Shown here piece by piece: positions 10,155-29,214 of a DNA stretch of 38,659 bases. Below the pieces are notes generated by a model. The model did not search any database. It was not told the DNA's origin and worked only from the letters and a program-made list of their open reading frames with translations. A program made the position numbers and the translations under genes. Each line of letters begins with the position of its first letter. Positions within the stretch are counted from its first letter, which is position 1. The DNA comes from Myxococcota bacterium (GTDB taxonomy: Bacteria; Myxococcota_A; Polyangia; Polyangiales; Sandaracinaceae), in assembly GCA_036149055.1 (NCBI GenBank), contig JAYZQJ010000148.1:1-38659 (forward strand), read 5' to 3'.

Positions 10155-10276
10155 CGCCCGTGGACGGAGGGGCGGTTGACATCGTGTCAGCCATTGCCAA
10201 GTTGTGCCATGCGAACGCGGAGCCGGCCGAGCACGCGTTCGGGCAATCCACCGTTATCGTTGGCAATTCTCAGGGG

Positions 10277-10304
10277 TTGACCCCCACCTTCGGGTGATTA
10301 GATT
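10277..10304 (+). promoter_or_regulatory. Putative sigma70-type promoter for dnaK
   Basis: TTGACC-16 nt-TAGATT about 140 nt upstream of the dnaK ATG. Confidence 0.4.
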
Positions 10305-10442
10305 CGGCCGCGCCCCCCACAGGGGTGCCACATCTACGCGCGCCAGGACGGCGTCGCGGACATCACCGTCATCCCTGCGACTTGCGGCGCGGGAGCCTTC
10401 GTGAGAGAGGGCCCTGCCGAGCAACCCGAGAAGGAAGAGAAC

Positions 10443-12347
<1,905 letters not shown>

Positions 12348-12419
12348 CCTCGGCCCGGTCGAACGAGAAACGGCGCTCTCACCTCGCGGTGGGAGCGCCG
12401 TCTCCAATTCGGGCGGCCG

Positions 12420-22717: not shown

Positions 22718-23461
22718 GGTCTCGACCGACAGCAGATCGTCGAGGTCGTCGCGAGGCGCCTCGCCGATCGCGCTCAGCACGAGGCGATAGCGGACGCCGT
22801 CGTGAGCGAAGCGGCTCACCCGCGACCTCAGCCAGCCGTCTCCGGCGAGCGACGCGCTCACCGCGTCGGGCGTGACCGAGTCGACCCGATGGCCGGCGCG
22901 CTCGAGGCGAGCGGCGATCTCGCGGGTGACGTCGGCGCCGGTGTCGTGCGCGAGGTCGAGCGTGAGCTGCGTTCCCTCCCCCTCCCACGCCCAGACCCGA
23001 TGCGCGTCGCGCCAGCGCGCGTCGCCGGCCGCGCGAGTCTCCTCCTCGAGCGAGGGGGATCGCGTCAGGCCTCGCTCCGTGGGGTCCGAGATCGAGAAGC
23101 CGAGGGTGGGGTGCGCCAGTCGGCCGTCCTCGACGCCGAGCGCTCCGGCGGCGGCGCCGCCGAGCGGGACCGGGCCCGCGGCCTGTGAAGACCACACCAC
23201 CAGCGCGATGAAGCCCGCGGCGATCGACGCGGACAGCGCTCCGGTGATCCGAGCCGCGGTCCGCGCGCCTCGCTCACCCAGCAGCGCGGCCGAGAACGCG
23301 AGCGCGCCCGCGATCCAGGCCGCCCACATCGCGCCGCTCACGATCGAGCCGGGCGCCCAGGGGCTCGACGCGGCGACCGCCAGCGAGGTGAGCATCACCG
23401 GCGCGGCGGCGAGCGATCCCCACCCGAGGGCGCGCGCGTAGCGCATGACCCACTCGGGCAC
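22697..23461 (-). CDS. Hypothetical membrane protein
   Basis: 254-aa ORF with three N-terminal hydrophobic helices; convergent with tlyA. Confidence 0.6.
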   Translation of the reverse strand: MPEWVMRYARALGWGSLAAAPVMLTSLAVAASSPWAPGSIVSGAMWAAWIAGALAFSAALLGERGARTAARITGALSASIAAGFIALVVWSSQAAGPVPLGGAAAGALGVEDGRLAHPTLGFSISDPTERGLTRSPSLEEETRAAGDARWRDAHRVWAWEGEGTQLTLDLAHDTGADVTREIAARLERAGHRVDSVTPDAVSASLAGDGWLRSRVSRFAHDGVRYRLVLSAIGEAPRDDLDDLLSVETSDALEE

Positions 23462-23469
23462 GATCAGAG

Positions 23470-23540
23470 CTCCGGCGGCTGGATTCGAACCAACATAGAC
23501 GGATCCAAAGTCCGCAGTCCTACCATTGGACGACGCCGGA
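23470..23540 (-). tRNA. tRNA-Gln(TTG), canonical
   Basis: Acceptor TCCGGCG/CGCCGGA + G73; D arm GTCC-AATGGTA-GGAC; anticodon loop CT-TTG-GA; T loop TTCGAAT. Confidence 0.95.
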
Positions 23541-23587
23541 AACGCTGCGGAGGATAGTACACGCGCCGGTCGCGTCGAGCGGCCTCA

Positions 23588-23659
23588 TGCCTCCCGCCAG
23601 GTTCGAACTGGCTTCTCCCGGTTACGACGCGGGTGCGTTACCGATCACGCTCGAGAGGC
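23588..23659 (-). tRNA. tRNA-Thr(CGT), atypical (last array member, downstream of the Ro60 gene)
   Basis: GCCTCTC/GGGAGGC acceptor; GCGT-GATCGGTA-ACGC; anticodon loop GT-CGT-AA with a C.C mismatch at 31-39; GCCAG-TTCGAAC-CTGGC. Confidence 0.75.
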
Positions 23660-23757
23660 ACGGTCGCCGCGACCGCTCGCCAACGTCGCGAGCGGCCGCG
23701 GGGCCCGGAGCTCCGAGGAGCTCTATTTGGGTGGATGGGTGAGTGGTGGAAGAAGAT

Positions 23758-25302
23758 CTACTGGCCGCGGATGACGTCCACCCAGTGCTGCGCGCCGTCG
23801 GCGCCCTGGGCGAACGCCGCGACCACGTCGAACACCTGGTCGGAGAAGCCCCCGACGTTCAGGATGTCCGGCGAGTCCGGCGCCTGAGAGTGGCCGTACG
23901 GCTGCACGTCCACGCAGACCAGACGCGCCTTCGGGTTCCGGCTCTTCAGCTGGTTCCACTGACGCATGGTCTCCGTGGCGCCGTGACGACGTGCATCGAC
24001 CCACGACTGGTTGTCGCTGACGATCACCACCAGGTCGACCTTCCGCTGCTCCGCGTTCAGCTTCGCGAGCGGGGCCGAGACGTTGGTGCCGCCGCCTCCG
24101 ATGGAGGCGAGCTTCCGCGCGTTGGTCATCACGGTGTCCCGCGGCTCGAGCTCGACCGGCACGCAGCCGTGCTCGAAGGGGATGACCCCCGCCCGCGGGT
24201 TGTGCCGCACGAGCGCCGCCGCGAACAGCGCCGCGACGTCGACGCACTTCACCGCGCTCGTCGCGCCCTGCCGCCAGCCGGTGACCGGCGACTGCATCGA
24301 GCCGGAGACGTCCGGGCAGACGAACACGTGCCCGTCGATCCGCGGCACGTTCGCGATCGCGTGCTCCATCGCGTCGTGCAGCGCGCCCCGCACCTGCGCC
24401 GGGACCTTCGTCGCGCTGACGTAGGCCATCATGAGCTGGTACGGGAAGGCGCGCGCCTTCCGGACGAGCGACGGGTCCGAGAGCCGCGCCGCGATCCGCT
24501 CGGTCATCCCGTCCACCTCGAACACGCCGTGGCGCTGGAAGGTGTTCAGGTTCATCCGCGTCATCTGCCACGACGCGGACTCCGCGATCGCCGCCCACTC
24601 GGCCCGGCCGAGGCCGAGCGCGGTGAGCATCTGGAACGGCACGCTCGGCACCGCGTTGGACCGGTCACGCTTGTAGGCCTCGAAGGCCTTCACGAGCTCC
24701 GGCAGCGCGTCCCCGTCGTGCGCCTTGCCCAGGAGGTACCCGTAGAGCGCCCGCCGCGAGGCGGAGGCCGGCTTCGGGTGGACCATCTTGAGCACGTCGG
24801 CGAGCGACGGAGCGTTCCCGACCGAGCCCTTGAAGAGGTACTCGTCGGACCGCGAGCCGAGCCACCGGAGGATCTCCTTCTTCGGCCGCGTCCCGAGAGA
24901 CTTCCGGCCGACGGCGCCGCTCCGCATGATCTGCACGAAGGTCCGGAGCATCTTCACGTTGTCGACGACCTTCGGGAAGGCCGCCCCGAAGAGCTCGGGA
25001 TCGCGCACGGAGAGCACCGCGAGCAGGAGCGCCGGCATGTCCTTCATGTGCCCACGCTGGCGCGCGTACACCGCGCACTTGGCGAGGAACTCCGGGTCGA
25101 CCGCGAACGCGAGCTTCAGCACGACGTCGAGCTGCGTCTGCGCCGACGCGTAGAAGGTGCCGTTCAGGCAACCGGTGGCCGCGTACTGCCCGAGCGCGTG
25201 CTCCGGACCGAACGCGTAGGCCGGCCCACCCGCCTCGTTGACGAGATCCGGCTTGGGCAGGAGCTTGCCGACGAACGACGCGAACAGGTTCTTGTTTGCC
25301 AT
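23758..25302 (-). CDS. rsr: Ro60/TROVE-domain RNA-binding protein with vWA domain (Rsr)
   Basis: N-terminal NEAGGPAY..L.QYAATGCLNGTFY; MTRMNLNTFQRHG; FPYQLMMAY; MIDAS motif CPDVSGSM, GGGTN, VSDNQSW, VGGFSDQVF. ATG at 25302 follows a GGAGGTG RBS (514 aa). Confidence 0.95.
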   Translation of the reverse strand: MANKNLFASFVGKLLPKPDLVNEAGGPAYAFGPEHALGQYAATGCLNGTFYASAQTQLDVVLKLAFAVDPEFLAKCAVYARQRGHMKDMPALLLAVLSVRDPELFGAAFPKVVDNVKMLRTFVQIMRSGAVGRKSLGTRPKKEILRWLGSRSDEYLFKGSVGNAPSLADVLKMVHPKPASASRRALYGYLLGKAHDGDALPELVKAFEAYKRDRSNAVPSVPFQMLTALGLGRAEWAAIAESASWQMTRMNLNTFQRHGVFEVDGMTERIAARLSDPSLVRKARAFPYQLMMAYVSATKVPAQVRGALHDAMEHAIANVPRIDGHVFVCPDVSGSMQSPVTGWRQGATSAVKCVDVAALFAAALVRHNPRAGVIPFEHGCVPVELEPRDTVMTNARKLASIGGGGTNVSAPLAKLNAEQRKVDLVVIVSDNQSWVDARRHGATETMRQWNQLKSRNPKARLVCVDVQPYGHSQAPDSPDILNVGGFSDQVFDVVAAFAQGADGAQHWVDVIRGQ

Positions 25303-25398
25303 GATGCACCTCCGTGTGGAGTGAAAGGCGCCGCGAGGGCGCGTGATAAGTCGCGTTCGCTGGGCTCCTCCCCGAGAGGAGCCGGGGTGCGAACGCGA

Positions 25399-25469
25399 AG
25401 CGACCGGTCGGAGTCGAACCGACACTGCGGACCTGGCAAGCCCGAGTCCTACCGTTGGACCACGGTCGC
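25399..25469 (-). tRNA. tRNA-Gly(GCC)
   Basis: GCGACCG/CGGTCGC + U73; GTCC-AACGGTA-GGAC; TT-GCC-AG; GTCGG-TTCGACT-CCGAC. Confidence 0.9.
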
Positions 25470-25473
25470 GAGA

Positions 25474-25544
25474 CGCCGCGTACGGAAATCGAATCCGTCT
25501 CACTCGGGAGACAACCGAGCTGCATCCCAGATGCACAACGCGGC
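25474..25544 (-). tRNA. tRNA-Asp(GTC), atypical
   Basis: GCCGCGT/ACGCGGC + G73; TGCA-TCTGGGA-TGCA; CTCGG-TT-GTC-TC-CCGAG; ACGGA-TTCGATT-TCCGT. Confidence 0.85.
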
Positions 25545-25550
25545 AGAAGA

Positions 25551-25583
25551 TGGAGCGCATCGGAGTCGAACCGATCACGCCCT
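25551..25583 (-). ncRNA. tRNA-Ala-like minihelix or tRNA remnant (acceptor + T arm only)
   Basis: AGGGCGT-G-ATCGG-TTCGACT-CCGAT-GCGCTCC-A gives G3.U70 and A73, with no D or anticodon arm. Confidence 0.55.
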
Positions 25584-25590
25584 TCGCTGA

Positions 25591-25661
25591 AGCGATCGAC
25601 GGGAGTTGCACCCGTGTCTCCGGCATGGGAGGCCGGCGTCCTGCTGCTGGACGACGATCGC
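25591..25661 (-). tRNA. tRNA-Gly(CCC), atypical elbow
   Basis: GCGATCG/CGATCGC + U73; GTCC-AGCAGCA-GGAC; CCGGC-CT-CCC-AT-GCCGG; ACGGG-TGCAACT-CCCGT. Confidence 0.82.
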
Positions 25662-25696
25662 GAAGGCGAGCCCCTACGCGAGAGGCATTCGCGGCA

Positions 25697-25781
25697 TGGA
25701 GAGCGGAAGAGTCGAACTCCACACCCCGGAGGGTGCGCACCCGCTAGCAACGGGGCTCGATCCCGGACCGATTCACTCTCC
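25697..25781 (-). tRNA. tRNA-Ser(GCT), long variable arm
   Basis: GGAGAGT/GCTCTCC acceptor; loop TT-GCT-AG; variable stem CACCC/GGGTG; T loop TTCGACT. Confidence 0.8.
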
Positions 25782-25786
25782 TGAAG

Positions 25787-25869
25787 CGGAAGGAGGAGGT
25801 CACGCTCCCCACACCTGTCGGTGCGCACCGTTTTCGAGACGGGCTCGGCCCTCGGCCAATTCTCCTTCC
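25787..25869 (-). tRNA. tRNA-Ser(CGA), atypical T loop
   Basis: GGAAGGA/TCCTTCC + G73; loop CT-CGA-AA; variable arm CACC-GACA-GGTG; T loop AGCGTGA. Confidence 0.75.
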
Positions 25870-25878
25870 GGGAGAAGA

Positions 25879-25997
25879 GCAGCGACGAGTGGTGCGAAGA
25901 CGTGTTCCCGCGGTCCTGCCCTTGGACGACCGCCGAGGCGGGCCGGAGTCGAACCGGCATCTGCGGGGTGAGTTGTAGTCTTCGCGGCATTCGCTGC
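25879..25997 (-). ncRNA. Y RNA (YrlA-like, permuted tRNA-like domain), copy 4
   Basis: Terminal stem GCAGCGA-ATGCC-GCGAAGAC / GTCTTCGC-ACCACTCG-TCGCTGC encloses a T arm (GCCGG-TTCGACT-CCGGC), a loop-closed acceptor (CCGC-CTCG-GCGG) and then a D arm (GTCC-AAGGGCA-GGAC). Confidence 0.85.
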
Positions 25998-26035
25998 GCC
26001 ATTCGTGCGAAACGCGCTCGCTCCCTCGAGAGCGA

Positions 26036-26122
26036 CGGAAGATGGAGGTCACGCTCCCCACCCCTGGAACCAGGGGCGCGCCGGCTTCCAACCGGGCTCG
26101 GCCCTCGGCCGATTCACCTTCC
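26036..26122 (-). tRNA. tRNA-Ser(GGA), atypical T loop
   Basis: GGAAGGT/ATCTTCC + G73; loop TT-GGA-AG; variable stem CCCCTG/CAGGGG; T loop AGCGTGA; clear paralog of the Ser(CGA) gene. Confidence 0.75.
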
Positions 26123-26183
26123 AGCTCGCGCGTGGGGCGAGGGGCGACCCCGAGGCCGACCCCTCACCCGCCACGCGCCGCCC

Positions 26184-26705
26184 TCAGCTCGGGCCGGTCG
26201 TCCACCAGACCCAGTCCTTCCACGGGTCCGGCAGGCTGCGACCGACGCCCAGCTTGGGCAGCCCGGCCGGGAGCGCCTTGGGGCGCACCGGCTGGCTCAG
26301 CAGCTTCATGCCGGCCTGCTCGGGCGTCCGGTTGCCCTTTCGCCCGTTGCAGTCGCGGCACGCGCTGACGATGTTCTCCCAGGACGTGCGGCCCCCCTGA
26401 GAGCGGGGCTTCACGTGGTCGAACGTCAGCTCCCGCGCCGGCAGCTGCTCGCCGCAGTACTGGCAACGGAAGTCGTCGCGGGTGAGCACGTTCACGCGGG
26501 AGAAGCGAACCTTCGGCTCGCGGTGCTTGATCGCGCGGGTCAGCCGAACGACCGCGGGCTTCGGCAGCGCCGTGCTCACCGAGCGGATGAGCTCGTCATA
26601 GGTCTCGACGACCTCCACCTTCCCCGTGAAGGACATCAGGATGGCCTTCTGCCAGCCGACGATCCGGTGTGGCAAGTAGCCTTGGGTCAGGACCAACGTG
26701 TCCAT
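26184..26705 (-). CDS. HNH endonuclease (McrA-like, zinc-binding)
   Basis: FSRVNVLTRDDFRCQYCG..LTFDHVKPRSQGGRTSWENIVSACRDCNGRKG; ATG at 26705 (173 aa). Confidence 0.93.
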   Translation of the reverse strand: MDTLVLTQGYLPHRIVGWQKAILMSFTGKVEVVETYDELIRSVSTALPKPAVVRLTRAIKHREPKVRFSRVNVLTRDDFRCQYCGEQLPARELTFDHVKPRSQGGRTSWENIVSACRDCNGRKGNRTPEQAGMKLLSQPVRPKALPAGLPKLGVGRSLPDPWKDWVWWTTGPS

Positions 26706-26795
26706 GGGAGCACCTTCTTTCGGGGTGATGCGGGCGGAGGGAGGCGCTCGGCGCCGAACGCGACGAGCGGTGACGGAGGGGAGCGAGGGTTCTGC

Positions 26796-26870
26796 GGCGA
26801 ACGGGGAGATTCGAACTCCCACTGAGCGACTTCTGAGGCCGCTGCCTCTGCCGAGTTGGGCTACGTTCGC
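26796..26870 (-). tRNA. tRNA-Leu(CAG) with short variable loop
   Basis: GCGAACG/CGTTCGC acceptor; GCGGC-CT-CAG-AA-GTCGC; 5-nt variable loop TCAGT; GGGAG-TTCGAAT-CTCCC. Confidence 0.85.
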
Positions 26871-27057
26871 GAAACTTTCGTGGCGGGAGGTGGTCGGCTG
26901 CCCGGGGCATCCAGGCGAAGCGGGTGGAGCCTTCGCCCACCGGGCAGCCGACCGACCTTCACGCTCGAGTCCCACCGGACCGTGGCCACCCACCGGTCGC
27001 CCGCGAGGCTCGCGCTCGCGGTCGCCCCTCGTCCGAGGAGCGCGGCGTGGTCGGGGA

Positions 27058-27129
27058 CGCTCTCGCCTGGACTCGAACCAGGAACGCGGGCTTCGGAGGC
27101 CCGAGTGATCTCCGTTTCACTACGAAAGC
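27058..27129 (-). tRNA. tRNA-Arg(CCG)
   Basis: GCTTTCG/CGAGAGC + G73; GTGA-AACGGAGA-TCAC; CGGGC-CT-CCG-AA-GCCCG; CCTGG-TTCGAGT-CCAGG. Confidence 0.9.
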
Positions 27130-27199
27130 ATGTCCCCGTCGTCCGGCGGTGCGTCCAGCGCGGGGGGATGCGCCAGCGGCACGTTCGATCCGACGGAGA

Positions 27200-27271
27200 T
27201 CGGAGAGGGAGGAATCGAACCTCCGTGGTCTGGTTCCCGAAACCAGTGCGTGGCCACTACGCTACACTCCG
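27200..27271 (-). tRNA. tRNA-Pro(CGG)
   Basis: CGGAGTG/CTCTCCG + A73; GCGT-AGTGGCC-ACGC; CTGGT-TT-CGG-GA-ACCAG; GGAGG-TTCGATT-CCTCC. Confidence 0.88.
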
Positions 27272-27511
27272 CTTGCTGGAGGGCCTGAACGCAGGCCCTC
27301 CCCCCATTGGGCAAAGCGCCAATGGGGCCCCCCTCCCGACTCCGTCGGAGCTTCGCGCTTCGCGCTCGCTCCGCGTCCCCAGCGGCGGGGCGCTGGGGCC
27401 CTGCGGCTCGCGCTAGGCGCTTCGCGCCTCGCTGGCCGCCTTTCTGTTGTCGCCGACTTGGTTGTCGTGGGCCGCGCTCGGCGCTTTGCGCTTCGCTGGC
27501 CACCTTTCTGT
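27272..27511. repeat. Palindromic dispersed repeat copy B with an internal 38-bp duplication
   Basis: Inverted homolog of 12-223; 27410-27447 and 27474-27511 match at 34/38 nt. Confidence 0.65.
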
Positions 27512-27538
27512 CGTGGGGGACTCCGGGCCGGGCGGGAG

Positions 27539-27611
27539 CACCCTCGGCAGGAGTCGAACCTGCATCCTCCCGATTCGTAGTCGGGTGCTCATCCATTCGA
27601 GCTTCGAGGGT
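27539..27611 (-). tRNA. tRNA-Arg(ACG)
   Basis: ACCCTCG/CGAGGGT + G73; GCTC-GAATGGAT-GAGC; CCCGA-CT-ACG-AA-TCGGG; GCAGG-TTCGACT-CCTGC. Confidence 0.9.
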
Positions 27612-27615
27612 AGAG

Positions 27616-27684
27616 AGTGCCGAGAGGGAGTCGCGCCCTCGCTCGCCGGGTTGCAGCCAGCGACGCTCGCTCGAGCTTCGGCAC
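27616..27684 (-). tRNA. tRNA-Cys(GCA)-like, reduced D loop
   Basis: GTGCCGA/TCGGCAC + U73 (Cys discriminator); GCTC-GAGC-GAGC; loop CT-GCA-AC; GAGGG-CGCGACT-CCCTC. Confidence 0.7.
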
Positions 27685-27688
27685 GTAG

Positions 27689-27766
27689 TGGTCGACGAGG
27701 GAGCCGTGAGGAGTGCCCGGTCGGGCGTCGATTGACAGTCGATGTACTCACGGCGGCATTCGACCA
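27689..27766 (-). ncRNA. Short Y RNA without tRNA-like domain, copy 3
   Basis: TGGTCGA-ATGCC-GCCGTGAG-TACA...CTCACGGC-TCCCTCG-TCGACCA: same terminal helix motif as the other copies, with two small internal hairpins (78 nt). Confidence 0.72.
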
Positions 27767-27767
27767 G

Positions 27768-27840
27768 TGATCGAGGCGGGAGACGATCCCGCGACCTCCG
27801 GCGTGTCGGGCCGGCGCTCTGCCTGCTGAGCTACTCGATC
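27768..27840 (-). tRNA. tRNA-Val(GAC), atypical
   Basis: GATCGAG/CTCGATC + A73; GCTC-AGCAGGCA-GAGC; CCGGC-CC-GAC-AC-GCCGG (C33); GCGGG-ATCGTCT-CCCGC. Confidence 0.82.
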
Positions 27841-27864
27841 GTGTCTCCAGCGGAGACGAGAGAG

Positions 27865-27972
27865 GCAGCGACGAGGGGTGCGAAGACGCAACGCTTCTCC
27901 GCCCGCAGGATGGACGGAATCGGAGTCGAACCAATGTAAAGCAACCATGTAGTCTTCACGGGCATTCGCTGC
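27865..27972 (-). ncRNA. Y RNA with T arm and closed acceptor stem but no D arm, copy 2
   Basis: GCAGCGA-ATGCCC-GTGAAGAC-TACA..ATTGG-TTCGACT-CCGAT-TCCGTCC(loop)GGGCGGA..GTCTTCGC-ACCCCTCG-TCGCTGC. Confidence 0.8.
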
Positions 27973-27980
27973 GGAGAGGA

Positions 27981-28109
27981 GATGGCGACGAGGGGTGCGA
28001 GGACATTGCTCTAGCCACTGAGCTACGTCCCGATGACTCGAGACGGCCGGATTCGAACCGGCGACCCTTCGTGTTGCAGACGATGTAGTCCTCACGGGCA
28101 TTCGCCATC
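27981..28109 (-). ncRNA. Y RNA (YrlA-like, permuted tRNA-like domain), copy 1
   Basis: GATGGCGA-ATGCCC-GTGAGGAC-TACA..GCCGG-TTCGAAT-CCGGC-CGTCTCGA(GTCA)TCGGGACG-TA-GCTC-AGTGGCTA-GAGC..GTCCTCGC-ACCCCTCG-TCGCCATC. Confidence 0.88.
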
Positions 28110-28111
28110 AG

Positions 28112-28186
28112 GTGGACCGACGGGACTCGCACCCGCTCATGCCTGGGTCACGGCCAGGCGCCTCGACGACTTCGGCTTCGGTCCAC
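28112..28186 (-). tRNA. tRNA-His(GTG), atypical T loop
   Basis: 8-bp acceptor GTGGACCG/CGGTCCAC (G-1:C73 His determinant); CCTGG-CC-GTG-AC-CCAGG; GCGGG-TGCGAGT-CCCGT. Confidence 0.83.
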
Positions 28187-28190
28187 ACAG

Positions 28191-28261
28191 CGCCTCGAGC
28201 TGGACTCGCACCAGCACCTCCCGGATTTCACCCGGGCGCTCGACTGTCGAGCTGTCGAGGC
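28191..28261 (-). tRNA. tRNA-Phe(GAA), atypical
   Basis: GCCTCGA/TCGAGGC; GCTC-GACAGTC-GAGC; CCCGG-GT-GAA-AT-CCGGG; GCTGG-TGCGAGT-CCAGC. Confidence 0.8.
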
Positions 28262-28266
28262 AGGAG

Positions 28267-28339
28267 CGCCGCCGGAAGGATTCGAACCTTCGACCCCCCG
28301 GTTAACAGCCGGGTGCTCTACCGTTGAAGCTACGGCGGC
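28267..28339 (-). tRNA. tRNA-Asn(GTT)
   Basis: GCCGCCG/CGGCGGC + G73; GCTT-CAACGGTA-GAGC; CCCGG-CT-GTT-AA-CCGGG; GAAGG-TTCGAAT-CCTTC. Confidence 0.93.
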
Positions 28340-28384
28340 GTTCGGACCCCGGGGCGCCTGCCACGCGCCCCGGAGGAGACCTGA

Positions 28385-28413
28385 TTTTCAAGGAGCGGCC
28401 CTCGATGGAGGGC
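28385..28413 (-). promoter_or_regulatory. boxB-like hairpin followed by boxA-like antitermination sequence
   Basis: GCCCTC-CATC-GAGGGC hairpin, then GCTCCTTGAAAA, which resembles the rrn boxA consensus (GCTCTTT[A/G]A[C/A]A). Confidence 0.55.
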
Positions 28414-28415
28414 GC

Positions 28416-28486
28416 AGCCGCGCCGAGGAGTCGCACCTCGACCTCCCGGTTCAGAGCCGGACGTCCTGCTGTTGGACCAGCGCGGC
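28416..28486 (-). tRNA. tRNA-Gln(CTG), atypical
   Basis: GCCGCGC/GCGCGGC; GTCC-AACAGCA-GGAC; TCCGG-CT-CTG-AA-CCGGG; CGAGG-TGCGACT-CCTCG. Confidence 0.8.
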
Positions 28487-28490
28487 GTGA

Positions 28491-28562
28491 TGAAGCGCCA
28501 GGGAGTTGCACCCCGATCGACCGGGTAAGAACCGGCTGCTCTGGCTGTTGAGCTAGCGCTCC
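28491..28562 (-). tRNA. tRNA-Lys(CTT), atypical elbow (first array member)
   Basis: GGAGCGC/GCGCTTC + A73; GCTC-AACAGCCA-GAGC; GCCGG-TT-CTT-AC-CCGGT; CGGGG-TGCAACT-CCCTG. Confidence 0.83.
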
Positions 28563-28599
28563 AGAAACGAAAAAAGCCGTCTGCGTGCAGGCAGACGGC
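28563..28599 (-). terminator. Intrinsic terminator (attenuator 2) immediately upstream of the first tRNA
   Basis: GCCGTCTGC-CTGCAC-GCAGACGGC-TTTTTTCGTTTCT; a competing GCAGACGG strand lies at 28635-28628. Confidence 0.85.
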
Positions 28600-28624
28600 C
28601 GGAAGAAGTCGCATTGATTCGACT

Positions 28625-28819
28625 TCACCGTCTGCGATGAATCTCCTGACCGTAGGTATCTGTCTGCGAAGAGATCGGATTGAGATGGGGTTCCGGACAT
28701 CCGCTCGCCAGGCGCAGGTCACCCGTCGAGCGAGCGAACGAGGCCGCCGCGCGTGAGGGGGTCGCCGGACGCCATCGCGGCCTGATGGCCGCCAAGGGCA
28801 TGAGGGGGGTGCGCTGCAT
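28625..28819 (-). CDS. Putative leader peptide 2 (64 aa)
   Basis: Ends CGC AGA CGG TGA exactly on the antiterminator strand; codon-diverse; no visible Shine-Dalgarno. Confidence 0.5.
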   Translation of the reverse strand: MQRTPLMPLAAIRPRWRPATPSRAAASFARSTGDLRLASGCPEPHLNPISSQTDTYGQEIHRRR

Positions 28820-28886
28820 GGGAGGGGAGACGTTCGAGGGGGCGAGAAGTTCCGTCGAGCTGGGATGAAGGGAGGGGAGGGGCGCG

Positions 28887-28926
28887 AGAAACGAAAAAGG
28901 CCGCCTCGGGGAGTCCCGGGGCGGCC
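28887..28926 (-). terminator. Intrinsic terminator (attenuator 1)
   Basis: GGCCGCCCCGGG-ACTC-CCCGAGGCGGCC-TTTTTCGTTTCT; same tail as attenuator 2; a competing GGGGCG strand lies at 28958-28953. Confidence 0.85.
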
Positions 28927-28957
28927 CAAATACGCGAAAAGCGTATGGATCTCGCCC

Positions 28958-29176
28958 CTATGGGATGCGCAGTTCCTGACGAAGGAAGCTCGGGAGCTTC
29001 CCGAACGACGAGCCGCGCTCGTCCGCGCAACGCAGCGGTCCGTGACCGCCGCACTGGCTATCGATCATGTCGATGTCGATGCCGCAGAGACCGAAGGTGG
29101 TCTCCCGGCTCACACCGTACCGGTTCAGCGCTCTGGCTGACCGGTCGCCCTTCGGCGTCTGATGCGTCCACGACAT
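28958..29176 (-). CDS. Putative leader peptide 1 (72 aa, near-leaderless)
   Basis: ATG 9 nt after the -10 box; all 20 amino acids by codon 33; TAG stop overlaps the antiterminator strand. Confidence 0.62.
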   Translation of the reverse strand: MSWTHQTPKGDRSARALNRYGVSRETTFGLCGIDIDMIDSQCGGHGPLRCADERGSSFGKLPSFLRQELRIP

Positions 29177-29185
29177 GATGTGAAG

Positions 29186-29214
29186 GTCTTAACCCAGGTC
29201 CAGACCCGTGTCAA
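29186..29214 (-). promoter_or_regulatory. Putative sigma70-type promoter of the tRNA/Y RNA/Ro60 operon
   Basis: TTGACA (29214-29209)-17 nt-TAAGAC (29191-29186), preceded by a T-rich tract in otherwise very GC-rich DNA. Confidence 0.65.

Follow-up and report, generated by a model that had tools for sequence, protein, structure and literature searches.

Is the G18·U55 contact of the tRNA elbow open to replacement in natural genes? The question is raised by a tRNA gene array of a Myxococcota bacterium (Sandaracinaceae; about 70% GC, 9.9 Mb; assembly GCA_036149055.1, contig JAYZQJ010000148.1). The window analyzed here is a stretch of 38,659 nucleotides (nt), and its array comprises 18 tRNA genes for 13 amino acids, all on the minus strand from 28562 down to 23588. 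The array also carries an HNH gene, three YrlA-like RNAs and a Ro60/TROVE gene, with two attenuator-like leaders upstream. G18 and U55 rank among the most conserved tRNA bases in the available parts of two sources (PMC10424219, PMC7912444). Sequence comparison nevertheless argues that A18·G55 is a real, widespread and repeatedly evolved variant of the elbow, most likely within the same fold.

An earlier sequence-only reading of 25591..28562, a span that excludes tRNA-Thr, tRNA-Asp and tRNA-Gly-GCC, had noticed that D-loops lacking GG accompany T-loops with G55. Since ARAGORN at lowered thresholds returned mostly noise in GC-rich DNA, genes were identified with a pairing-based cloverleaf parser that leaves positions 18, 54, 55 and 58 unscored, at a cut of 26 (scores are bimodal). 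The parser favors intact stems and fails on the tRNA-Cys of the window, which was hence parsed by hand. Array genes score 27-31, and no score above 25 was obtained in about 31 kb of flanking window sequence on both strands.

All loops quoted in the earlier reading were recovered in this way. D-loop and T-loop read AACAGCCA/TGCAACT in tRNA-Lys-CTT, AACAGCA/TGCGACT in tRNA-Gln-CTG, GACAGTC/TGCGAGT in tRNA-Phe and AGCAGCA/TGCAACT in tRNA-Gly-CCC; tRNA-His has CG at 18-19 with T-loop TGCGAGT, and tRNA-Cys a 4-nt D-loop, GAGC, with T-loop CGCGACT. With Ser-GGA and Ser-CGA, which prove to be A18/G55 as well, G55 without G18 is found in 8 of the 18 array genes. Seven of these have AG in the D-loop (for Cys within its four bases), and tRNA-His has C18. 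The remaining ten (Asn, Arg-ACG, Arg-CCG, Pro, Leu, Asp, Gly-GCC, Ser-GCT, Val and Thr) combine G18 with U55. The split of 8 versus 10 is without exception, for which we calculate a chance of 1/C(18,8), or ∼2e-5. Apart from Asp (A53-U61), all parsed window genes share G19, C56, R57, G53-C61 and a 7-nt T-loop. The motif U-G-N-R-A closed by a Watson-Crick pair, that is, the G-clamp motif, is present in Lys, Gln, Phe, His and Gly-CCC, while Cys (C54) and Ser-GGA/CGA (A54/U58) depart from it at 54/58.

Outside the window, all 36 convincing tRNA genes of the genome have D-loop GG and U55. Six of the eight G55 genes (Lys-CTT, Gln-CTG, Phe, His, Cys and Gly-CCC) have canonical copies among the rest of the genome, and no second Ser, Asn or Arg-ACG gene was found elsewhere in the draft assembly. 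Ser, Asn and Arg-ACG apart, the array is supernumerary to the housekeeping set. The expectation that standard annotation would miss such genes holds in part: ARAGORN recovers 14 of 19 genes (missing His, Cys and the three 8/4 Ser genes) and Rfam at gathering 13 of 19, but ARAGORN still calls four of the eight G55 genes.

To follow the two positions among relatives, arrays were collected through a Ro60 search, which matched 56 of 201 genomes; 40 of the 61 listed places were taken as loci. Together with the window they provide 364 distinct tRNAs, picked blind to 18/55. Position 18, which is ambiguous in AGG loops, was assigned by D-loop spacing only, with GG preferred, replacing an earlier rule that had left 69 of 364 ambiguous; 19 tRNAs with a D-arm shorter than 14 nt were set aside, leaving 345. 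The classes are G18/U55 (286), A18/G55 (43), G18/G55 (4), A18/U55 (2), C18/G55 (2), G18/C55 (4) and other/U55 (4). The six G18/G55 and A18/U55 rows appear mis-registered by eye, yet were kept as exceptions.

Of 18 amino-acid families, 13 include tRNAs of both elbow states. With 18 and 55 masked, a FastTree tree, noisy given the short sequences, implies 32 changes at 55 and 33 at 18; 19 independent pairs on supported branches gave on average 16.9 concordant and no discordant cases (sign test, median P = 1.5e-5). The mutual-information check proposed in the earlier reading was carried out on these arrays with average product correction (APC). Of 2346 column pairs, 18-55 ranks 21, a place amid the Watson-Crick stem pairs; only 15-48 precedes it as a tertiary pair, and 54-58 ranks 33. 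Neither 18 nor 55 has another strong partner, and the covariation points to position 18 as the partner of the presumed clamp base G55. Each window G55 gene has as its nearest U55 relative its own isoacceptor, and descent of all G55 genes from one duplicated ancestor was rejected for the relatives' arrays; in Verrucomicrobia, where the nearest outside U55 gene is cognate in only 30 of 62 cases, this rejection is less firm.

The paired change extends well beyond these relatives. Phage contigs were scanned twice, each scan taking 80 of at least 122-123 loci. With G55 fixed, A18 was found in 63 of 67 distinct matches among those listed; with A18 fixed, G55 was found in 56 of the 65 listed. Among the matches listed in a GTDB scan, A18 accompanied G55 in 59 of 62, from Pelagibacteraceae, Streptomyces, Verrucomicrobia, Elusimicrobia, Patescibacteria, cyanobacteria, Micrarchaeota and others. 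These scans give no frequencies, as the listings are partial and a D-arm AGCTCA...AGAGC was required. A pattern scan of the phylum (301 genomes) adds little: about half of 13 matches are not tRNA, and the six tRNA-like ones are all G55. Such recurrence in many bacteria, archaea and phages suggests a second working version of the tRNA elbow.

The strongest sign that A18·G55 can serve translation comes from Pelagibacter G201, a single-contig genome with 32 tRNA hits in which the only tRNA-Phe match is an A18·G55 gene. Among fetched Pelagibacteraceae tRNA-Phe genes, all eight with G55 have AG and all 13 with U55 have GG. In four loci of this family (L332, L355, L357 and L358), the tRNA-His adjoining Phe is also A18·G55, with A54·U58 or G54·G58. 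Streptomyces loci L317, L320, L325, L340 and L346 carry an extra A18·G55 tRNA-Gly(UCC) in up to four tandem copies, with a canonical copy elsewhere.

Verrucomicrobia arrays have G55 in 14 of 14, 21 of 23 and 19 of 21 tRNAs, and their G55 genes differ by at least 17 positions, excluding recent duplication within the array. Nearly wholly G55 arrays were seen at L318, L334, L343, L350, L353, L373, L389, L391 and L394, and the G55-rich arrays contain many G·G, C·A and A·U pairs at 54/58. In the two Verrucomicrobia arrays with open reading frames (ORFs) listed, ORFs resembling Ro60 and HNH were recognized by eye; among eight arrays scanned, some carry YrlA-like or GOLLD-like RNAs (GOLLD-like in L350 and L394).

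The earlier reading had also described a flip of U54-A58 to A54-U58. This was confirmed in the T-loops of Val (ATCGTCT) and of Ser-GGA and Ser-CGA (both AGCGTGA), and the two positions do covary: in the Ro60-anchored set, U58 accompanies 12 of 20 A54 tRNAs versus 1 of 344 others. A·U as the only alternative did not stand. That set (n = 364) contains U·A 335, A·U 12, A·A 8, G·G 4 and others 5, and all 860 tRNAs contain U·A 748, A·U 39, G·G 26, C·A 23, A·A 9, U·U 6, C·C 5 and others 4. The flip is thus real, yet one member of a family of covarying pairs. Purine 54 goes mostly with purine 60 (A·U with A60 in 30 of 39, G·G in 23 of 26). Pairs other than U54·A58 are found in 9 of 46 G55 tRNAs versus 6 of 272 U55 tRNAs, A57 in 15 of 46 versus 12 of 272, and A60 is likewise commoner with G55.

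How might such an elbow be built? In the available passages of a survey of the motif (PMC2615604), a T-loop consists of a trans U·A pair (the UA_handle) and a UNR or GNR turn, closed by a G-clamp or, less often, by the U-clamp known from tRNA-Phe. The base of the clamp forms a bond with an intercalated nucleotide, and C:A, A:A, G:A, C:C and G:G are given as variants of the U:A pair. We propose that the tRNAs shift to the commoner G-clamp, the intercalating partner changing from G18 to A18 while G19-C56 is retained. G55 would clamp the loop phosphate and take the intercalated A18 in a sheared-type, GNRA-like contact, and mutants altered at 18 or 55 alone would be purged. With G55 in place, U54·A58 would be freer to vary to A·U, G·G, C·A or A·A, mostly with purine 60. 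Because G55 cannot be converted to pseudouridine, this elbow would be independent of TruB by construction. The swap would be favored where modification is absent or limiting, namely in TruB-less genomes, in phages and in arrays transcribed in bursts at ribosome stalling.

We give a probability of roughly 0.7 to the reading that these are working tRNAs in which G18·U55 is replaced gene by gene with A18·G55, the modification-limited driver included. Its functional part, a tRNA of the same L-fold, is very probably correct; modification independence as the driver has, in our judgement, slightly less than an even chance. The alternative tertiary fold postulated earlier is accepted as far as selection is concerned, but the fold is better described as the same elbow with a G-clamp/GNR submotif (PMC2615604, in the passages available).

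Support for the driver comes from 61 Pelagibacteraceae genomes, in which a hand tally gave TruB in 0 of 20 carrying G55 Phe versus 19 of 33 carrying U55 Phe; the other eight had no Phe match, kin are not independent and genomes are incomplete. Several observations weigh against the preferred reading. Fourteen SAR11 genomes without a TruB match retain U55, and the SAR11 signal may come down to about two lineage events, the genomes being incomplete. The host itself has TruB and TrmFO, a TruB-family gene is present in 19 of 24 other carrier genomes, and in an Elusimicrobia draft with a TruB-family gene the only Thr-GGT found is A18·G55. Nine of the 65 phage A18 matches listed retain U55, C18 in the tRNA-His of the window departs from A18·G55 pairing, and A54·U58 falls outside the trans Watson-Crick/Hoogsteen variants given in the passages of PMC2615604. 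C33 (His, Val), G73 (Phe) and U73 (Gln) could impair decoding. The suggested escape from TruB is backed by SAR11 and opposed by the host and the other carriers; as for TrmA, none was found in the host, which has TrmFO. A host lacking TruB was considered and rejected, both for the genome of the window and as a general requirement.

Pseudogene decay or chance deserves next to no credence. It would fit the redundancy of the genes, the 5 of 19 that escape ARAGORN and the degenerate fragments at 25546-25591, but stems are equally intact in both types (0.28 mismatches in G55 versus 0.36 in U55 genes, by a parser that demands good stems in both) and single-change intermediates are nearly absent. The sole tRNA-Phe and the 18/55 class counts refute decay in general and, with the APC-corrected mutual information, bear out the earlier view of compensatory change under selection. 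It would also be surprising if the odd genes were decoys or Ro60-associated RNAs, selected for shape and not for decoding. Their apparent co-transcription with Ro60 and YrlA-like RNAs, their C33, odd discriminators and miniature D-arm, and the canonical genomic copies of six of the eight would suit such mimics, as would the irregular tRNAs that are charged yet unused in the accessible text of PMC5389517. Mimicry is at odds with the retention of anticodons and of many identity elements (His G-1/C73, Cys U73, Gly U73), with the isoacceptor as nearest U55 relative, and with the charging of 23 of 26 tRNAs of an Anabaena array (PMC8421152, available portion). That A18/G55 (and A54/U58) create a different tertiary arrangement, not isosteric with the standard elbow, appears very unlikely as well: the loop retains its length together with G19, C56, R57 and G53-C61, neither 18 nor 55 has another strong partner, and a sole tRNA-Phe must suit ribosome, EF-Tu and RNase P. 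This explanation can draw on the excess of A57, A60 and non-U·A 54/58 among G55 genes, on purine 54 with purine 60, and on the position of A·U outside the variants noted above (PMC2615604).

The remaining rivals concern the cause of the swap. Drift, by which A18·G55 and G18·U55 are equivalent and interchange under relaxed selection in redundant arrays, phages and reduced genomes, is somewhat unlikely. It accommodates the presence of both states side by side in most arrays, the low share of G55 (49 of 345 array tRNAs of relatives), the variability of the arrays at 8/14, 33 and 73, and the keeping of TruB by most carriers. It fits poorly with the clustering of G55 by array beyond a within-amino-acid shuffle (P = 0.004; 15 arrays and 262 tRNAs, with 12 near-duplicate loci, judged by eye, and loci of fewer than six tRNAs dropped) and with the Verrucomicrobia arrays of 14/14 and 21/23 G55, which are not recent duplicates, shared ancestry being left out of account. 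Alternatively, the swap could hide tRNAs from a GG/UUC-reading nuclease, toxin or defence protein and so create a resistant reserve pool during stress or phage conflict, which we consider unlikely. Most characterized tRNA nucleases cut the anticodon loop or the 3' end, which counts against evasion; moreover, no candidate elbow-reading nuclease was identified in the analysis, 10 of 18 window genes are unconverted, and A18·G55 occurs in sole housekeeping genes of SAR11. Enrichment of A18·G55 in phages and in Ro60/YrlA/HNH arrays, and the array-level clustering, would agree with evasion, and the YrlA-like RNAs of the operon retain a UUCGA loop, as decoys might. Toxin RNases are also induced together with the Anabaena array in the part of PMC8421152 available.

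A further-reaching form of the replacement reading is that a second, modification-free elbow, A18·G55 with a 54/58/60 sub-code, is positively selected and that entire stress-inducible Ro60/YrlA arrays, like phage tRNA sets, convert in parallel; we advance this tentatively. If true, fresh tRNAs would work without TruB/TrmFO, or escape an elbow-reading surveillance factor, during a translation block, and TruB-less SAR11 lineages would rely on a modification-free elbow for an essential tRNA. In any case, a contact long held fixed in all tRNAs is exchanged by a double change that has arisen dozens of times and is found in a sole tRNA-Phe. This natural change makes it testable whether pseudouridine 55 is conserved for the fold or for its enzymes. 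The A18·G55 genes offer natural pairs for truB-null tests and a modification-independent scaffold for tRNA engineering, and knowledge of A18·G55 can correct tRNA finders, which call too few genes in such arrays.

The region upstream of the array bears on its regulation. Leader ORFs 1 and 2 each precede a GC hairpin and U-run, and loci L031 and L033 have the same layout. The last codons of leader ORF 2 repeat the 3' arm of the terminator and could thus act as an antiterminator. Two leader ORFs with hairpins suggest translation-coupled attenuation, which would lead to induction on ribosome stalling; 28575-29214 is a candidate double ribosome-stalling attenuator, and the array is probably stress-induced. 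A sigma-70 consensus scan called no promoter, including the TTGACA-17 nt-TAAGAC element, and RNA contigs from two runs of one study stop at 29161-29162, a weak hint for a promoter. Part of the stretch is present in nine runs on record as RNA. Contigs of four RNA runs (two studies) cover the array, one spanning 27403-29162 and one 23399-26203; since flanks are covered as well, they are no gauge of level, ends, processing or charging. The Leu discriminator is A in all four RNA runs versus C73 in the window, and the variant rows listed for the RNA contigs include none at 18, 54, 55 or 58. All features are collected in Table 1.

Table 1. Leader elements, genes and RNAs of the array, in window positions
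Feature	Position	Strand	Support or remark
Promoter-like TTGACA-17 nt-TAAGAC, 5' of leader 1	29186..29214	-	by eye
Leader ORF 1, 72 amino acids (aa), C-terminus LRIP	28958..29176	-	similar ORF + hairpin in loci L031, L033
GC hairpin + U-run after leader ORF 1	~28889-28926	-	
Leader ORF 2, 64 aa, C-terminus EIHRRR	28625..28819	-	HRRR end kept in L031, L033
Intrinsic-terminator-like hairpin directly ahead of first tRNA	28575..28600	-	
tRNA-Lys(CTT), A18·G55	28491..28562	-	ARAGORN, Rfam, cloverleaf parser
tRNA-Gln(CTG), A18·G55	28416..28486	-	ARAGORN, Rfam, cloverleaf parser
tRNA-Asn(GTT), G18·U55	28267..28339	-	ARAGORN, Rfam, cloverleaf parser
tRNA-Phe(GAA), A18·G55; also C8/G14, G32, G73	28191..28261	-	ARAGORN, Rfam, parser
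tRNA-His(GTG), C18/G55, G-1, C73, C33	28112..28185	-	Rfam 38.9 bits, parser; not by ARAGORN
YrlA-like RNA 1, GG and UUCGA kept	27979..28108	-	RF02553 52.6 bits, below gathering 69
YrlA-like RNA 2	27862..27972	-	RF02553 29.4 bits, below gathering
tRNA-Val(GAC), G18·U55 + A54·U58, C33	27768..27840	-	ARAGORN, Rfam, parser
tRNA-Cys(GCA), miniature D-arm (loop GAGC), C54, G55	27616..27684	-	hand parse; not by ARAGORN, Rfam or parser
tRNA-Arg(ACG), G18·U55	27539..27611	-	ARAGORN, Rfam, parser
tRNA-Pro(CGG), G18·U55	27200..27271	-	ARAGORN, Rfam, parser
tRNA-Arg(CCG), G18·U55	27058..27129	-	ARAGORN, Rfam, parser
tRNA-Leu(CAG), G18·U55, 5-nt variable loop	26796..26870	-	ARAGORN, Rfam, parser
HNH endonuclease gene, 173 aa	26184..26705	-	PF14279, PF01844
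(8/4) tRNA-Ser(GGA), A18·G55 and A54·U58	26036..26122	-	parser
YrlA-like RNA 3	25876..25997	-	RF02553 57.6 bits, below gathering
(8/4) tRNA-Ser(CGA), A18·G55 and A54·U58	25787..25869	-	parser
(8/4) tRNA-Ser(GCT), G18·U55	25697..25781	-	parser; Rfam as tRNA-Sec, 31 bits
tRNA-Gly(CCC), A18·G55	25591..25661	-	ARAGORN, Rfam, parser
tRNA-Asp(GTC), G18·U55	25474..25544	-	ARAGORN, parser
tRNA-Gly(GCC), G18·U55	25399..25469	-	ARAGORN, Rfam, parser
Ro60/TROVE (Rsr-like) gene, 514 aa	23758..25302	-	PF05731, PF25045
tRNA-Thr(CGT), G18·U55, final array gene	23588..23659	-	ARAGORN, Rfam, parser
tRNA-Gln(TTG), canonical, after array	23470..23540	-	genome tRNA search

The last entry is probably a housekeeping gene, being the sole Gln-UUG found in the assembly. 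The three YrlA-like RNAs match model positions 1-114 of RF02553 in full length (E 2e-11 to 3e-3), all under the gathering score of 69, which copies in the relatives' loci L031, L032 and L039 exceed. According to the parser, the three tRNA-Ser genes share an 8-bp acceptor, a 4-bp T-stem, a long D-stem, a long variable arm and a Ser anticodon, with discriminator G73 in two and A73 in Ser-GCT.

Other features of the array tRNAs vary too. Positions 8/14 covary (U/A 187, A/A 22, G/G 20, C/G 18, U/U 17; mutual-information rank 24), the tRNA-Phe at 28191-28261 with C8/G14 being an example, and C33 in place of U33 is seen in His and Val of the window and in 50 of 318 7/5 array tRNAs of relatives. Miniature D-arms (<14 nt) occur in Cys, Met, Arg, Trp and Gly array genes (window Cys, L047, L053, L055, L060, L067), which still switch between GG/U55 and AG/G55. 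A 5-nt variable loop replaces the long arm in 16 of 31 tRNA-Leu genes from the arrays of relatives and in 27 of 29 from GTDB loci (examples: window 26796-26870, L031, L033, L039, L040, L049, L051, L066, L067, L070). Elsewhere in the host genome, further atypical Trp and Tyr tRNA genes lie at G000 C74:42605-42811 and C208:24813-24883. More small elements were noted at 27690-27765, 25662-25695 and 25546-25591, two that look like the Ro-binding end of YrlA-like RNAs but lack the tRNA module, and one an isolated T-arm hairpin. Palindromic GC-rich repeats separate tRNA genes at 27290-27510 and 26900-27030; read ends are loose there, which suggests a dispersed repeat family. At 10254-12407, a minus-strand ORF matching Pfam NAD-GH overlaps a 648-aa plus-strand ORF; presumably it is the well-known shadow ORF that lies antisense to a chaperone gene.

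The array type, the 8/4 Ser fold, the YrlA/Ro60 association and the G-clamp are already known, while no description of a natural A18·G55 elbow was found in the literature searched, most subscription papers and figures being out of reach. As in Rsr (Ro60)-YrlA loci (RF02553), a Ro60 gene adjoins YrlA-like RNAs, and the window differs in having three sub-gathering copies inside a tRNA array. Steinberg's suppressor selections (reportedly Zagryadskaya 2003, 2004; Doyon 2004) are said to have obtained functional non-standard elbows from randomized D- and T-loops, the purine at 18 depending on base 55 and A18·G55 possibly being included; those are synthetic libraries, whereas the genes here are natural.

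The closest array is the L-array of the Anabaena trn operon, which, in the available text (PMC8421152), likewise has supernumerary tRNAs, a linked HNH gene, an RNA-repair neighborhood and housekeeping copies elsewhere. The window appears to have two leader-ORF attenuators where Anabaena has promoter direct repeats, and its array embeds Ro60 and YrlA-like RNAs; the main text, as far as available, contains no occurrence of 'G18', 'T-loop' or 'TROVE'. No RtcB was found among the window ORFs scanned with Pfam. The three Ser genes share their 8-bp acceptor, 4-bp T-stem, long D-stem and long variable arm with the (8/4) tRNA-Ser/allo-tRNA class (PMC5389517, in part), and they switch elbow like 7/5 genes; G55, A18, A54 and U58 do not occur in the supplement text, figures aside. 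The G that follows the U·A pair, holding a phosphate and bonding with an intercalated base, is the G-clamp of PMC2615604, whose C:A, A:A, G:G and C:C variants occur in the tRNAs analyzed here too; in its available passages tRNA is the U-clamp case, with no natural G55/A18 tRNA and no A54·U58. Finally, tRNA-Pyl (PMC1851642, available portion) is likewise a functional tRNA with G55 and without G18G19. It differs in having lost G19/C56 (A56) as well and in having a synthetase of its own, whereas the type described here retains G19-C56 and spans most amino acids.

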